DNA from: Eledone cirrhosa
Taxonomy: Eukaryota
Assembly (NCBI GenBank): GCA_964016885.1
Contig: OZ024746.1
Coordinates: 13,764,001-13,828,000, forward strand
Reading direction: 5' to 3'
DNA: 64,000 nt
Below, piece after piece: positions 14,521-57,529 of the stretch. A program made the position numbers and the translations under genes. Position 1 is the first letter of the stretch. Every line of letters begins with the position of its first letter. The notes under the pieces were generated by a model that ran no database searches, had not been told where the DNA came from, and worked only from the letters and a program-made list of their open reading frames with translations.

Positions 14521-14954
14521 TATTTATATATATATGTATATATAAGTATGTATACGTACATACATATATGTATACGGACGTACAGTAGTATGTATATATA
14601 TATACATACATGCACACATATATATATGTACGTATGGATTCACCGAACATTTATTATAATGCTCGGTGTGTTTGTAAACAAACATCCCGAATTAAGCCGT
14701 ACAGTGTCTAGCAACCATCGCTGCTCGTTTGTTCAAAACTCTGACAAAGGAACGCTGTACTAGTTTCAAGCTTATTAGCTATCGTCAGCAACGTATACCT
14801 TCCTGCCAGATGATTGAACGTCTGAAAGTATATACTTTCCTTATGCATATTAACGGCTGAGCAGCCTAATTTGCATATCGAGTGAGTTAATCGGCCGGGG
14901 TACCGAAAACAGCCGTACTAAGAGTGAGAAATGAAATTTCGTTTCATTTTTTCT

Positions 14955-14958
<4 letters not shown>
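14047..14958 (-). mobile_element. Family C HHR element with internal microsatellite expansion and short inverted 3' tail
   Basis: Homologous to 21591-22062. 14058-14092 is inverted at 14917-14950. (TA)n flanks both ends. Confidence 0.8.
14753..14793 (-). ncRNA. Minimal hammerhead motif (family C)
   Basis: CGUUG-CUGACGA-U-AGCU-AAUA-AGCU-U-GAAA-CUAG-UA-CAGCG. Confidence 0.85.
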
Positions 14959-17265: not shown

Positions 17266-17650
17266 GTATATTTTTTTAACCTGTTAGTTCTTTCGTTACT
17301 TTGGTATTGTGTGTTAGATTTTGCCTACCACAATGTTCAATTTGTCTAGCTATTTAAACGTGTTATTACTCTAAGGAACTACCTTGTCGAGTGCTTTGCT
17401 AACTCATTCATATCGTAGGTAGAATTTGCTTGCACACCGCCAAAGATTCGATTTTACTAAGCCTCCAATTATATATATATATATATAGCATTAAGGATAC
17501 TATTTATGGTTATGTATATACTAAAACTTTTTGTAGTTATATATATTTTAAACCTTAAACAGTGAAAGACAGTAATTTATTACTACCTTATTACCAGTAA
17601 GATAAATAGCTCAATGTAATAACATCAGTTGTTCTACAGAGCAGTTATAT
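17266..17650. mobile_element. Two tail-to-tail repeat 3' ends meeting in a (TA)n tract
   Basis: 17266-17470 is homologous to 44928-45028. 17488-17650 is the reverse complement of ~2825-3000. (TA)n lies between them. Confidence 0.6.
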
Positions 17651-21435: not shown

Positions 21436-21595
<160 letters not shown>

Positions 21596-21898
21596 TGAAA
21601 CAAAATGAAAACGAAATTTCATTTCTCACTCTTAGTATGGCACTTACTTAAATGTAAGTATGCATGTATACGTACATACATATATGTATACAGACGTACA
21701 GTAGCATGCACATATATATATATATATACATATATACATACATATGTATACAGGTACACATACATATATGCACGTATCAGTTTAACGGCGCTTATTATAA
21801 CGTCGCTTTGTTCGTTTGTAAACAAACTGAACAGCCTGAATTTATGCCATACGGTGTTAAGGCAACCACGTCACCTTTTTGTTCAACACTGACACAGG

Positions 21899-21943
21899 AA
21901 CGATGTACTAGTTTCAAGCTTGTTAGCTATCATCAGCACCGTT
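21899..21943 (-). ncRNA. Minimal hammerhead motif (family C)
   Basis: AACGGUG-CUGAUGA-U-AGCU-AACA-AGCU-U-GAAA-CUAG-UA-CAUCGUU. Confidence 0.88.
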
Positions 21944-22432
21944 TACCCATCTGCCAGATAGTTGAACGTTCGAAAGTATATACTTTCCTTATGAAAATTA
22001 ACGGCTGAGCAGCCTAATTTGCATATTGAGTGAGTTAAATCGGTCAGGCATACCGAAAACGATAAATTGAAACAAAATGAAAACGAAATTTCATTTCTCA
22101 CTCTTAGTATGGCACTTACTTAAATGTAAGTATGCATGTATACGTACATACATATATGTATACAGACGTATAGTAGCATGCACATATATATATATATATA
22201 CATATATACATACATATGCATACAGGTACACATACATATATGCACGTATCAGTTTAACGGCGCTTATTATAACGTCGCTTTGTTCGTTTGTAAACAAACT
22301 GAACAGCCTGAATTTATGCCATACGGTGTTAAGGCAACCACGTCACTCAATATGCAAATTAGGCTGCTCAGCCGTTAATTTTCATAAGGAAAGTATATAC
22401 TTTCGAACGTTCAACTATCTGGCAGATGGGTA

Positions 22433-22477
22433 AACGGTGCTGATGATAGCTAACAAGCTTGAAACTAGTACATCGTT
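22433..22477 (+). ncRNA. Minimal hammerhead motif (family C, inverted copy)
   Basis: Identical to 21899-21943 on the opposite strand. Confidence 0.88.
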
Positions 22478-22729
22478 CCTGTGTCAGTGTTGAACAAAAA
22501 GGTGACGTGGTTGCCTTAACACCGTATGGCATAAATTCAGGCTGTTCAGTTTGTTTACAAACGAACAAAGCGACGTTATAATAAGCGCCGTTAAACTGAT
22601 ACGTGCATATATGTATGTGTACCTGTATGCATATGTATGTATATATGTATATATATATATATGTGCATGCTACTGTACGTCTGTATACATATATGTATGT
22701 ACGTATACATGCATACTTACATTTATATA

Positions 22730-24062: not shown

Positions 24063-24111
<49 letters not shown>

Positions 24112-24247
24112 GAAGTTATATTTAATTTGTTGGGATACAACAAGCAAATATTTTTATAACTGATATAAACCACTAAACAAATTATTGGAGTAAAAATACA
24201 ATATATTAACAAATGGAAACTATATTTATAAAACCATATTTATTTCA

Positions 24248-24302
24248 TTATACATATTTCAAGGACACCAAAGCAAATTATGGTGCGCTTTCATCAGATA
24301 AA
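24248..24302 (-). ncRNA. Hammerhead motif
   Basis: Reverse complement of 24456-24510. Confidence 0.7.
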
Positions 24303-24455
24303 ATATAATATAGATCAGTTTTATAAACAAATATTGACATACCCTTAAAGAATGCGACCATGTCGGTTGGAAGCTATCCGGAGGCTTCCAACCGACATGG
24401 TCGCATTCTTTAAGGGTATGTCAATATTTGTTTATAAAACTGATCTATATTATAT

Positions 24456-24510
24456 TTTATCTGATGAAAGCGCACCATAATTTGCTTTGGTGTCCTTGAA
24501 ATATGTATAA
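24456..24510 (+). ncRNA. Hammerhead motif
   Basis: CUGAUGA-AAGcGCACCA..UGGUGUcCUU-GAAA-UAUG-UA-UAA. Stem I is weak. AATAAA follows. Confidence 0.7.
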
Positions 24511-24772
24511 TGAAATAAATATGGTTTTATAAATATAGTTTCCATTTGTTAATATATTGTATATATATATATATTTATTCAGGTTTGAGGTTCACCACTG
24601 GACAGAGCTGGTCAATTCCGTATGGTCAATCGCAATGTAATAATATGGAGAGTACTCAACGTAAAGCAGTTCAACCGTCTTTGTTTTTGTAGTTGGTGGT
24701 GCGAGTACGGAGTTAAATATTATAATGAAATGACAGGAGGCTGGACTTGTGTAAATCCTTGAAAGGTTTATT

Positions 24773-24830
24773 ATACTATGATCATTTCAATGACCGGGTT
24801 CCGTATGAATCCGGTGATATCATCAGGTAT
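24773..24830 (-). ncRNA. Hammerhead motif
   Basis: Reverse complement of 25105-25162. Confidence 0.85.
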
Positions 24831-25104
24831 TCGAAATATAATAAGTGAATGTAATAGATAAAATCCATGGGGCTGAAAATCAAAGACCCGAGGACGACCG
24901 CCATCCAGCATCTTCCACCTTTGCCGGTCGCCCTCGAGTGACGTGACTAAAGCCCACAGTGTGCTACTACCGGTCAAATAAAGCAAAACAGAAAGGAATA
25001 GGAACACAAGAAAAGAAAGAAAGAAAGAAGAGAGAAGAAGGGGGAAGGTCATTGATTTTCAGCCCTATGGATTTTATCTATTACATTCACTTATTATATT
25101 TCGA

Positions 25105-25162
25105 ATACCTGATGATATCACCGGATTCATACGGAACCCGGTCATTGAAATGATCATAGTAT
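25105..25162 (+). ncRNA. Hammerhead motif
   Basis: AUAC-CUGAUGA-U-AUcACCGG..CCGGUcAU-U-GAAA-UGAUCA-UA-GUAU, then AAUAAA. Confidence 0.85.
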
Positions 25163-25208
25163 AATAAACCTTTCAAGGATTTACACAAGTCCAGCCTCCT
25201 GTCATTTC

Positions 25209-25275
<67 letters not shown>

Positions 25276-45070: not shown

Positions 45071-45163
45071 GAAGTAATTCCGTCGGAAAAGTCCAGGAAA
45101 AAAGAGTGCTCTATGTAGGTAACAGAGCTTAATAGTTATGTAATAAACAACATAAGGCAATTA

Positions 45164-45224
45164 TTTCATTTACCAGTGGTTTCTTAAAAGCAAAAACATT
45201 TTGCTTTCAATCATCAGAATGAAA
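45164..45224 (-). ncRNA. Intact-looking hammerhead motif
   Basis: UUUCAUU-CUGAUGA-UUGAAAGCAAAA-UGU-UUUUGCUUUUAA-GAAA-CCACUGG-UA-AAUGAAA. The element at ~45068-45260 lies between TA tracts. Confidence 0.88.
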
Positions 45225-45288
45225 AAATCCTGGCGTATTTATTGACGTTGGATTTTAAAAATATATATATAAATATATATATATATAT

Positions 45289-45688
45289 TGGTAAAAGGAA
45301 AAGAAAATGCTGACAAATTGTTCCCAGTGAAAAATAGTTTAACTAAGTATAAGTAAAAATTAGTAATAAGTATTGGTTAGTATTCAGTTTTGGTTTTAAG
45401 TTTTTACCGGTTGCGCATTTCTAATGCTTTTCAAAAATAATTTTGAGATAGAGCGCCCATGATGTTTGCTCTAATCTGATCAGTTTTGGAAATTCTACCT
45501 GTTTTATGTGAAAAAAGTGGCTCCAGATGTATTAAAATAAGTTTCGCGCCAATTCGTTTTGCAAAAATTCTTGTGGTCAAAACAATTTTGATTGGTCGGT
45601 AGAGGTCATGTGAATGTTAAAAATTGATTTTGCGCCAAATATAGGTTTGTCTCACTGATTGAGAAGTCACTGAAAAATTGTGTGAATA
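45289..45688 (-). mobile_element. Family D repeat abutting (TA)n, with variant HHR-like motif at 45402-45437
   Basis: Homologous to 55439-55870. Contains CCAAT and CACRTG motifs and UUU-UUGAAAA-GCAUU-AGA-AAUGC-GCAA-CCGG-UA-AAA. Confidence 0.7.
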
Positions 45689-45727
45689 TATATACAGTAT
45701 ATATATATATCTATATATATATACACA

Positions 45728-45972: not shown

Positions 45973-46140
45973 TAGAAAGTGAGGTTTTTTTACAAAATGA
46001 AAAATAACCGAGGTGTCCTACACGAGTGAAAGGATAAAGAAAAAAAGATGAAATCGAAAATGCAACCGGAGTCTTATTTAAAAAAATATATATATTTTAA
46101 AAAAATAAGACTCCGGTTGCATTTTCGATTTCATCTTTAT
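45973..46140. mobile_element. Family E short fold-back copy
   Basis: Same terminus (TAGAAAGTGAGG) as 54990. Arms 46044-46079/46103-46138. Confidence 0.85.
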
Positions 46141-53348: not shown

Positions 53349-53406
53349 GAGAGGTACAGTCAACTCTCACAAACCTACTGGTTTGTGAGAGTTGACTGTA
53401 CCTCTC
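53349..53406. repeat. Perfect 27-bp inverted repeat (4-nt loop) within an old SINE
   Basis: GAGAGGTACAGTCAACTCTCACAAACC-TACT-GGTTTGTGAGAGTTGACTGTACCTCTC. Confidence 0.95.
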
Positions 53407-53627
53407 ATTTTATTAACCGGGAAGAATGGAATATATAGTTGACATTGGCGGAAATGGAACTTAGAATTAAAAATAAACGTAATTAAATACCACAAACCTA
53501 TTTGTCAGCCTATTTTGAACTCCACCGATTTGCTAAAACAATGTATCTTAACTGTTGGAAATCATTTTTCCTTTTATTACAGAATATGGATGGAATAGAA
53601 TCTGAATGCATAATAAACCAAAGTAAA

Positions 53628-53927
53628 CAATTGTTTCTACTTTTGGCACAAGGCCAGCAAATACCCAGTACATTACTGGTACTTTATTTTATCGACCCTG
53701 TACAGATGAAAGGCAAAGTTAACCTCGGCGGGAAAGTAAATAATTGTTTCTATTTTAGGCACAAGGCCAACAATTACCCAGTACATTACTGGTACTTTAT
53801 TTTATCGACCCCGTAAGGATGAAAGGCAAAGTTAACCTCGGCCGGATTTGAACTCAGATCGTAAAGGGACGTAACTATGCTGGAAAGCATGGCGTCCGAC
53901 CCTCTACCGATACTGCCAATTCACCGC
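53628..53927 (-). mobile_element. Full SINE plus adjacent 3'-half copy in tandem
   Basis: Two GGCACAAGGCCA tails at ~53645 and ~53757. Confidence 0.88.
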
Positions 53928-54880: not shown

Positions 54881-54995
<115 letters not shown>

Positions 54996-55125
54996 GTGAG
55001 GTTTTTTTTACAAAATGAAAAATAACCGAGGTGTCCTACACGAGTGGAAGTATAAAGAAAAAGGGATGAAATCGAAAATGCAACTGAAGTCTTATTTTTT
55101 TAAAAATATATATATTTATTTGGTT

Positions 55126-55163
55126 CCTTTACCGGTTTCGCAGTTCTTCTGCTTTTCAAAAGG
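55126..55163 (-). ncRNA. Hammerhead motif, U3-A8 core variant
   Basis: Reverse complement of 55239-55276. Confidence 0.72.
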
Positions 55164-55238
55164 TGAGTTGAGATGGAGGGTCTGTGGTTTTTCTCACATC
55201 TGATGTGAGAAAAACCACAGACCCTCCATCTCAACTCA

Positions 55239-55276
55239 CCTTTTGAAAAGCAGAAGAACTGCGAAACCGGTAAAGG
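55239..55276 (+). ncRNA. Hammerhead motif, U3-A8 core variant
   Basis: CCUU-UUGAAAA-GCAG-AAGAA-CUGC-GAAA-CCGG-UA-AAGG, followed by AAUAAA. Confidence 0.72.
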
Positions 55277-55344
55277 AACCAAATAAATATATATATTTAA
55301 AAAAAAATAAGACTTCAGTTGCATTTTCGATTTCATCCCTTTTT

Positions 55345-55438
<94 letters not shown>

Positions 55439-55441
<3 letters not shown>

Positions 55442-55870
55442 TAAAAAGGAAAAGAAAATGCTGACAAATTTTTCCCAGTGAAAAATAGTTTAATTAGGAA
55501 TAAGTATAAATTAGTAATAAGTATTAGTTAGTATTCAGTTTTAGTTTTAAGTTTTTACCGGTTGCGCATTTCTTATGCTTTTCAAAAATAATTTTGAGAG
55601 AGAGTGTTCGGGATTTTTGCTCTAATCTGATCAGTTTTGGAAATTCTTCCTGTTTTATGTGAAAAAAGTGGCTTGGAAGGTATTAAAATTTGGTTGGTTG
55701 TTGAATGTCACGTGAATAAGCACTATAAATTTCGCGCCAATTCGTGTTGCAAAAAGTTTTGTAGTCAAAACAATTTTGATTGGTCGGTAGAAATCACGTG
55801 AATGTTTAAATTGATTTTAGCGCGAACTGGTTTCGCGCCAAATGTAGGTTTGTAGATTTTCCGCTTGATT
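55439..55870 (-). mobile_element. Family D repeat with variant HHR-like motif at 55553-55588
   Basis: Homologous to 45289-45688. UUU-UUGAAAA-GCAU-AAGAA-AUGC-GCAA-CCGG-UA-AAA. Confidence 0.7.
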
Positions 55871-57391
55871 GAGTTGCAGTCATGTTGAGAGGTCAACAGT
55901 TCAGGTGTCTATTAAGACAAATATGTTATTCGATACATTATTCAATATTTTCAGTCATTTTCAAGAACGATTCTCTCAAAAGAACATCAATAACATCAAT
56001 AACAAAAGAGGTGAAATGATGTATAGTATTGTCATAACAACAAGGCGTGTGTGAGTCCAGATTGTACGTACTGCAAGGGGAATCCATTAGGTCCTGGCGT
56101 ATGGGATATTTGTGTACAAATATGTTTGTGCCCATCAATGTGCAATACATGTGTGCGTATGTGTATGTGTGCGTGTCGGCGCGTGTATATCTATAAACAC
56201 CTAAACTTTTTTGAAATGATCTTTGCTAGATGTGATTTGATAGATAGTTTTTGGCTTTGTTTGTTTTTCGACTCTGATGCTTATAATGAACTTGGCAATA
56301 TATTGTCAATTAATTTTGAAGGGTTGACCTTTGTGGTTTATTTTTATTTATTTTTTTATTATTTTTTTATTTTTTTATTATTGTAGTATTTTCTAATATT
56401 ATTTTTTATTATTGTAGTATTTTCTAATATTTTTATTTTTAATATTTTTTTAATATTTTTAATATGTAAATTTTTTAATATGTAATATTTTTAATATGTA
56501 ATATTCTTTCGTAATATTTTTTTTAGTTTTCTATTTTATTATTACTTATTATTATTATTGTTATTTTTTAGTTTTGTTTCTGATATATATTTTTATTAGT
56601 ATATTGAAATCTGCTCTCTATTTCTGCTTGATAGATAATCTTGTAGAGTAAAGACGGGAATAATAATACTCATATATGTATACTCAAATTTTTATACCAC
56701 ATTGAGAATGTTTTCCGTGAACATAGGCTTTGCAGAATTGATCATGTAGATTCACATGGATGTTTGTAGCTATTACATAAACATATGAATTTTTTTAAAA
56801 AACTAAACATAAGTTCATTAATTTTCACACACTATGGTTACTTGTCTCATTCAGGAATACTGATATTTACAATATAGTGGATGTTTTATAAATACATTAA
56901 AACATAGGGTTTTTACGCCTCGCATATATCTGGTTATTTTAAAATTTTTAAATTTTTTCTCTCGCTATATTTTTTTCTCTCTCTATATTTTTTTCTCTCT
57001 ATATATATCTCACTTACATTAATACTAGAGCTAAATAAATAAATAAATAAATAAATGTATCATTGATACATTTACTCAACAGACCTCCCACTACCTAATT
57101 TTCTATATATATATGTATCTATCTCTATTTCCTCTCTCTCTCTATATATATATCTCTTTCTGTTTCTTTACATGAAGTTCTTCTCTTTATCTATCTTTCC
57201 ATCTCTCTATTTTGTTCCATGCATTTCTTCTTCTTCTTCCTTTTCTTCGTTTTCTGTCTTTCTTTCTTTTTTCTCTCTTTCTTTCTCTCTGTGTACAATT
57301 TTTTCACTGCCATATCAACCTCTTCAAATGCAAGTCGATGTTATTACGGTATGTCGAATCTATTTATCTATAAAACTGTTTATATTGTATT

Positions 57392-57446
57392 TTGTCTGAG
57401 GAAGGCATAGCATATTGTTAATACGATATCCCTGAAATATATATAA
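57392..57446 (+). ncRNA. Hammerhead motif (diverged relative of the 24.5-kb family)
   Basis: CUGAGGA-AGG..CCU-GAAA-UAUA-UA. The downstream tail is nearly identical to 24508-24561 and ends in (TA)n. Confidence 0.6.
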
Positions 57447-57490
57447 TGAAATAAATATGGTTTTATAAATATAGTTTCCATTTATTTAAT

Positions 57491-57529
<39 letters not shown>

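Follow-up and report, generated by a model that had tools for sequence, protein, structure and literature searches.

Head-to-head insertions of PLEs and hammerhead units in Eledone cirrhosa pair two fixed ends, which suggests probable priming from both target ends

Known PLE architectures and the present elements

An inverted, 5'-truncated copy accompanied by a one-sided tail is the architecture reported for PLEs in those parts of PMC3846280 and PMC8557442 that were available to us, and the origin of the inverted ends and the tail is stated as open in the corresponding parts of PMC8557442 and PMC11167929. The Hydra clade, according to the available text of PMC8557442, uses (TA)n targets, carries hammerheads, and is recognized in its ORF by RWK, a change of DKG to DKT, CxCX5C, the absence of CCHH, and CxxC plus CxH; among the families in the available section of its supplement are one from octopus and a Hydra family that has an inverted copy truncated at its 5' end. 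For Poseidon, the available portion of PMC11167929 reports that the purified PAc protein cuts and extends both strands of an AT-rich target in vitro, that two internal RT starts near a stem-loop bound the tail, and that a dimer is predicted; the strands showed no difference in start site there.

The elements described here share with the published EN+ PLE unit, as presented in the available parts of PMC3846280 and PMC8557442, a head-to-head copy, a tail at one end, partial tandems and palindromic junctions. The published tails are 30-40 bp long, whereas those in six of our seven families are 56-172 nt; the tail of family F is 40 nt and enters the ORF start, as in those papers. The tail is moreover described there as 'optional', whereas here it follows a rule by which an arm with a long end (L) is joined to an arm with a short end (S). 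The inverted copy with its one-sided tail is known, Hydra elements included, and it is the counts, the L+S rule and a twin hairpin that are added here; the shape being familiar, the value lies in the counts and in a testable signal. In the literature searched, outside of which are subscription papers and bioRxiv supplements, there is no prior statement of a strict L+S rule, of tails up to 172 nt, or of the twin hairpin, and the available text of PMC8557442 does not mention twin hairpins after the two ends for the Hydra clade.

Fold-back insertions in the window

The window is a 64-kb stretch of contig OZ024746.1, from a 3 Gb genome with abundant TA and CA repeats. The first-pass annotation listed nine fold-backs, and self-BLAST after simple-repeat masking finds inverted arms at eight of them. 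The ninth, 14047-14958, had been mis-paired: the actual fold-back lies at approximately 14535-14957 and consists of an S arm on the minus strand and a 46-nt L arm, with no sequence common to the two. About 450 bp of TA/CA repeat separates it from 14047-14089, which appears to be a separate terminal stub of another family D subfamily, and not the partner of 14912-14957, because its subfamily end differs.

The outer ends of all fold-backs enter (TA)n and the hammerheads face outward, in agreement with the annotated orientation of the 3' ends into TA-rich tracts. At 24196-24562 the inverted arms are 179 bp each and 98.9% identical, with a loop of only a few bases; within 24110-24562 the left arm extends ~90 nt beyond the reach of the right arm and then meets (TA)n. 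The adjacent insertion at 24576-25214 has arms of 168-175 bp (24720-24888 and 25047-25215, 98.8% identical), a 158-bp spacer and a tail of ~140 nt. These two are separate neighbouring insertions that have a short TA tract in common, and if transcribed they are predicted to form helices of 179 and 163 bp. Inverted arms that are 100% identical are present at 2550-2592/2787-2829 (43 bp) and at 21778-22033/22343-22598, the latter within a two-unit tandem with a single inverted arm (21591-22725). Further inverted-arm matches are at 29213-29492, 30615-30818, 46044-46138 and 55052-55350. Two exact-motif searches of the genome return close match pairs that are head-to-head in 12/12 and 20/20 cases.

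24066..24109: (TA)n target tract, left of the family A insertion
24110..24378, minus: family A long arm with its 3' end L at 24110; Hydra-clade PLE pLTR, as assigned by motifs
24110..24195, minus: family A unduplicated tail, ~90 nt between S and L
24172..24191, minus: family A bulged hairpin just past the S site; one outer-stem base is mutated here and intact in other copies
24241..24305, minus: type I hammerhead motif of the family A long arm (strict descriptor)
24384..24562, plus: family A short arm with its 3' end S at ~24560 (self-BLAST)
24453..24517, plus: type I hammerhead motif of the family A short arm (strict descriptor)
24562..24575: short (TA)n common to the family A short end and the family B long end
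24576..25046, minus: long arm of family B, from a non-coding hammerhead unit; the tail is 24576-24713, followed by a duplicated stretch (24714-24888) and a single-copy 5' stretch (24889-25046)
24654..24713, minus: family B bulged hairpin just past the S site, with a long inner loop
25047..25214, plus: family B short arm; hammerhead core at ~25105-25162 by the relaxed descriptor only
25211..25270: (TA)n right of the family B insertion
2550..3001: family C (Hydra clade by motifs); S arm 2550-2786 minus, L arm 2787-3001 plus; tail ~170 nt; hairpin 2833-2866
14047..14089, minus: family D terminal stub, probably separate
14535..14957: family D subfamily fold-back; S arm minus with hammerhead at 14788, 46-nt L arm 14912-14957, no duplication
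21593..22725: family D, retrozyme-like tandem hammerhead unit; two tandem units on the minus strand ending at L, inverted S arm 22343-22725, tail ~56 nt
29049..29491: family E; L arm 29049-29385 minus with hammerhead core, S arm ~29380-29491, tail 164 nt
30572..30818: family F, canonical C-terminal GIY-YIG PLE; L arm 30572-30690 minus, S arm to 30818; tail 40 nt, extending into the ORF start
45973..46138: family G fold-back, centre ~46091
54990..55350: family G fold-back, centre 55201, tail 61 nt

Seven matches to a strict type I hammerhead descriptor are present in the window, against none in 30 shuffles, and those inside fold-backs all point outward (24461+, 24297-, 22440+, 21936- and 14788-). 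An order of hammerhead then AATAAA had been used to orient the arms, and this holds for the hammerhead-bearing fold-backs. The arms of the 30572 family lack a hammerhead (a relaxed core is found within 600 nt upstream at 1/27 loci), as do those of the 45973/54990 family (relaxed core at 4/24 loci, each upstream of the arm), so these cannot be oriented in that way; the orientation of the 30572 fold-back is taken from its ORF. In Rfam, the best 150 of 217 matches contain no hammerhead family and only sub-threshold microRNA matches, which we attribute to composition noise. Since both flanks of the insertions are (TA)n, target-site duplications are unreadable, and a search with the flank gives one match within the assembly, with no second haplotype or empty allele.

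Identity of the seven families

The fold-backs fall into seven families: A (24110), B (24575), C (2550), D (14535 and 21591), E (29049), F (30572) and G (45973 and 54990). Searches of the genome with family motifs (20-34-mers) give 860 exact copies for A, 4,423 for B, 25,151 for D, 64 for E, 988 for F and 17,841 for G (the last by pattern search), and 3,324 copies for C with one mismatch allowed; there are 0 control matches for each. The fold-backs are the 3' ends of PLEs and of non-coding hammerhead units, sitting in (TA)n.

That PLEs are involved, as the first-pass annotation had suggested, is supported by ORF links in families A, C and F. Long copies of family A run through a 1.6-kb 3' UTR into an ORF, giving units of ~4.2 kb, whereas the Hydra elements in the available text of PMC8557442 are mostly <3 kb. 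Full-length relatives (L190, L191) have the order inverted pLTR, pLTR, 743-aa frame, UTR and pLTR. By alignment, the family A ORF has RWR, DKT, a CxCX5C linker, no CCHH, and a C-terminal CxxC plus CxH. Family C reads into a 442-aa frame whose N-terminal motifs are the same as those of family A, and the RWR of both families is a single conservative change from the published RWK. Both families have a single ORF joined to the repeat end, with RT motifs and C-terminal GIY-YIG-type endonuclease motifs; these were read by eye, and the Hydra-type ORF has no RT or GIY-YIG match in Pfam and none in PDB. The hammerhead and the (TA)n flanks of the Hydra clade are present as well, with a strict-descriptor hammerhead in family A and a variant core, identified by eye, in family C. 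We assign both families to the Hydra-clade PLEs on these motifs and not on an RT tree, and family A resembles the clade as described in the available text of PMC8557442 in its ORF motifs, canonical hammerhead and (TA)n target. Family F is a canonical C-terminal EN+ PLE of the Neptune or Nematis clade, with a DKG motif, an RT, a C-terminal GIY-YIG endonuclease with internal cysteines (Pfam PF01541, E=3.7e-05), and a pLTR that overlaps the ORF start and is without the hammerhead.

No ORF is linked to families B, D, E or G; PLE ORFs located close to loci of families B, E and G were considered as partners and rejected, since they are neighbours that are discontinuous with the arms. Family B is a non-coding, circularly permuted multi-kb unit with no PLE ORF within it, and family D forms tandem hammerhead arrays with a 420-500 bp period. 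Both are non-coding tandem units with a type I hammerhead, resembling in their circular permutation the animal non-LTR retrozymes of PMC7229834 and bioRxiv 10.64898/2026.07.22.740005, as far as the available parts of those reports describe them. What differs here is that they show PLE-type L and S ends.

Two fixed ends and their pairing

End points were catalogued per family, as had been proposed with the first-pass annotation, in a sample of 211 loci from six families on contigs C1-C3 (family D was left out, and some loci lie in one array), with ends called from position-ordered matches and not from best matches. At 202/211 loci the copy ends at one of two family-specific sites (102 S, 100 L and 9 other). 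End positions are bimodal, and the L-S distance, which is the tail, ranges from 40 to 172 nt among families. The 88 family A loci end 42 times at S, 42 times at L and 4 times elsewhere, and family A copies without a partner end at S in 16 cases and at L in 19.

The long arm had been thought to reach the RNA end, and this is refuted by full-length and tandem copies that read through L: in families A, B, C, D and F copies continue past L into the ORF or the next unit. L is therefore not the RNA end, and both RT starts are internal. The related idea that the short arm stops at an internal TA stands insofar as the ends are fixed and non-random, and S sites are TA-like; it does not stand as a matter of TA homology, since 22/34 S junctions read retain bases three positions past the nearest ATATAT run, and the last 302 nt of family A contain 43 TA dinucleotides, yet one S site. 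A model placing S at the longest TA run is mostly rejected by the same 22/34 junctions. We also reject AATAAA as a poly(A) signal, given copies that read through it and lack poly(A), and, for family A, hammerhead cleavage as the source of either end. In family A the hammerhead site precedes S by ~50 nt and coincides with few 5' ends, a count in which the focal arms are biased by the search motif. Among the 119 family A arms whose 5' end is in the last 450 nt, 41 stop 271-280 nt upstream of L (L061-L150; 24378-24388 in the window); this cluster has a sharp upstream edge and is likely an RNA start inside the pLTR.

An inverted partner is present at 101/211 loci, and 110/211 have no partner within 1.5-2 kb. 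The partnered loci comprise 90 L+S, 1 S+S, 1 apparent L+L and 9 in which one end is uncallable. Because L and S are equally common, independent choice predicts that half of the pairs are L+S; the observed proportion is 90/92 callable pairs (P=9e-25 against 1:1). The apparent L+L is formed by internal copies within an array that itself ends in L on one side and S on the other. Among long Hydra ORF loci read by eye (n=20), 11/12 callable pairs are L+S and one is L+L (L197). Family D, too noisy for the script and outside the 90/92, shows 7 L+S in 19 loci by eye, the others being uncallable. The exceptions are L197 (L+L) and L211 (S+S), together with L110 and L136, which read through S next to an L arm.

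Two of these loci have further peculiarities. At L211 (G000:C1:1615567-1618596), the only S+S pair, the inversion extends on both sides to a few bases of flank, perhaps by later symmetrization. At L110 (G000:C1:271490600-271494633) the family A arm passes S and enters the pLTR of another Hydra-type subfamily, a chimera suggesting a template switch.

A bulged hairpin after both ends

A hairpin in which a two-pyrimidine bulge lies between a 4-bp outer stem and an inner stem begins 2-10 nt past S and again past L in family A, in two sister subfamily copies, and in families B and C. Family E has the hairpin past S, and no read-through copy was found in which L could be inspected; families D, F and G have no such hairpin. 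In families A and B the outer pair differs between the two copies, being A-U in the one past S and G-C in the one past L. A 4.6-kb full-length copy contains just three matches to the hairpin, all at S or L, and a looser descriptor has four extra sense and four antisense matches in ~15 kb. Since the hairpin copy past L is never in the insert, it can act on the RNA only.

Arm geometry and junctions

The shorter-ended arm is not simply a portion of the other. In 38 adjacent family A pairs the S arm reaches further 5' in 22, the L arm in 12, and they are equal in 4, and in 15/90 pairs the tail exceeds the L arm in length, leaving no duplicated sequence between the arms. Simple fold-back of a cDNA cannot produce these configurations, although later deletions across the palindrome centre could mimic non-nested arms. 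Arms of one insertion have 0.69 non-majority bases in common per pair (26 pairs) compared with 0.097 between loci, and arm-arm divergence (3.3%) is not significantly lower than divergence between loci (3.5%; P=0.13). The rare bases in common favour one source element and do not prove one molecule; a single source locus could also have supplied two RNAs that carry them, or one arm could later have converted the other. Of 32 junctions, 14 contain filler, some of it a copy of nearby sequence; microhomology is present at 15, and the other 3 are blunt. The mean microhomology is 2.9 nt in the 18 filler-free junctions versus a null of 0.84.

Four public runs are listed, with no RNA run among them. 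Their contigs over 24889-25210 and 24379-24713, possibly from the assembly's own sample, include none that spans the window's own junctions. The same contigs contain opposite-strand joints at other positions, two in family A and one in family B, each in one contig. A further joint, at 24890-25067, proved to be ordinary read-through into an arm omitted from the query.

Possible origin of the paired arms

We think it fairly likely that a single RNA is reverse transcribed from two preset internal sites, with each of the two cut ends of the target serving as a primer. That the target primes at both ends was the proposal of the first-pass annotation, and it gains support from L+S in 90/92 pairs and from the non-nested arms; its further suggestion, of one start at the RNA end and one internal, is right as to two starts and wrong as to their positions, both being internal. 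On this proposal of two preset starts, the GIY-YIG endonuclease would cut (TA)n on both strands, and two RT units seated on the two hairpins would begin from 2-6 nt of TA pairing, one at S and one at L. If the L-primed cDNA stalls within the tail, an inversion without duplication would result, as in L1 twin priming; alternatively, it may displace the S-primed cDNA and recopy the same RNA to give a long palindrome. Both cDNAs would usually extend no further than a few hundred bases, in many cases to a common upstream point, likely the RNA 5' end, and end-joining repair would link them through microhomology, bluntly, or with short templated filler. The same machinery probably serves families B, D, E and G.

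The correspondence with L1 is informative. In the available text of PMC2837659, L1 twin or dual priming has the second target end priming internally to yield an inverted segment, and our 15/90 pairs have this geometry. L1 is described there with a first primer at the poly(A) end, a variable second site and an internal deletion, in contrast to the present elements, which have no poly(A), two sites that are fixed and internal, and arms that are mostly duplicated. The process works like twin priming and is not the L1 case, the features specific to L1 being absent. Poseidon PAc, in the available portion of PMC11167929, is similar in that two internal starts delimit the tail near a stem-loop, and differs in that its starts are inside the ORF whereas ours are mostly upstream of it; that portion makes no claim of one start per strand and leaves the inverted arm unexplained, whereas here L and S are paired.

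The available parts of PMC3846280 and PMC8557442 invoke self-priming or endonuclease resolution, where we infer two preset starts. A single cDNA could fold back and prime itself, or use an antisense template, such that the second arm copies the first and stops at S, with central deletions blurring the picture. The palindromic junctions and the self-priming proposed in PMC3846280, near-perfect hairpins such as 24196-24562, and the rare variants common to both arms are all in keeping with this, yet it predicts that S is nested in L, and the S arm is the further 5' in 22/38 pairs; neither the 15/90 pairs with no common sequence nor the tail, which an S-primed cDNA is unable to supply, is readily accommodated, and we regard this explanation as unlikely. 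If instead an asymmetric protein dimer copied two RNAs made by the same source locus, starting at L on one and at S on the other, the long duplicated arms would need no strand displacement. The dimer predicted in the available portion of PMC11167929, the few insertions with arms of different subfamilies (L136, L110), and an arm divergence that is not below that between loci are compatible with such a scheme; against it, an additional asymmetry is required for 90/92 L+S, and rare bases are common to both arms at 7x background, so that we consider it about as unlikely.

It is more improbable still that both arms start at L and that the endonuclease trims one of them at a TA-like S during resolution, the tail being a cleavage product. 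This is stated as the likely tail origin in the available text of PMC8557442 and fits the TA-like character of S sites, but the same hairpin lies past L as well, in a position that inserts never include, so that it can act on RNA only; unpaired family A copies are divided about evenly between S ends (16) and L ends (19), and RT in vitro starts at both sites, according to the available portion of PMC11167929. Assembly or amplification chimeras, for which the lack of a public-run contig across the window's own junctions might be cited, are hardly credible: they would not give two family-specific ends, L with S, or one facing (12/12 and 20/20 head-to-head), the arms differ by several substitutions, and the junction is distinct at each locus.

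Returning to two preset starts on one RNA, we offer more tentatively, as a possibility short of an expectation, that two-ended priming is the normal EN+ PLE route, in which an RT-endonuclease dimer on two bulged hairpins, with one start per cut end, would generate the inverted pLTR and the one-sided tail in one step. The hairpin pair would then be a cis signal used by hitch-hiking non-coding hammerhead units, its spacing setting the tail length. The L+S rule and the twin hairpin make the origin of PLE inverted ends and tail readily testable. Should priming from two preset sites prove correct, a single RNP would write the two insertion junctions at predetermined positions of the RNA, with a bearing on start-site choice by telomerase-related RTs. 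The tens of thousands of such hairpins could, if transcribed, be a source of dsRNA.

Other repeats in the window and related copies

Several additional sequences in the window resemble parts of the families above. A solo short-ended arm of a sister Hydra subfamily is at 57300-57495, with an intact hammerhead motif at 57396 (+), and a tail-only family C copy with its start at approximately the S site is at 17490-17650, between two TA tracts. Another repeat end facing (TA)n is present at 45290-45700 and 55440-55826, and is 75% like family G over 78 bp; in L055/L165 this repeat end is inverted and adjoins a Neptune-like GIY-YIG frame. A further hammerhead element, at 45087-45260 (motif 45217, minus), is related to 31246-31343. 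In family E (L269, L273, L274, L279, L288 and L292) the long ends often adjoin (CT)n before or instead of (TA)n.

Other repeats are of different types. A 58-bp near-perfect palindrome at 53349-53406 is without (TA)n flanks, and a 20-bp minisatellite of 166 copies with strong strand skew occupies 33466-36783. Finally, a 190-bp interspersed repeat is present in many copies (11475, 26645, 36906, 40435, 43263, 43590 and 53626-53927), and is also found inserted in PLE copies elsewhere.
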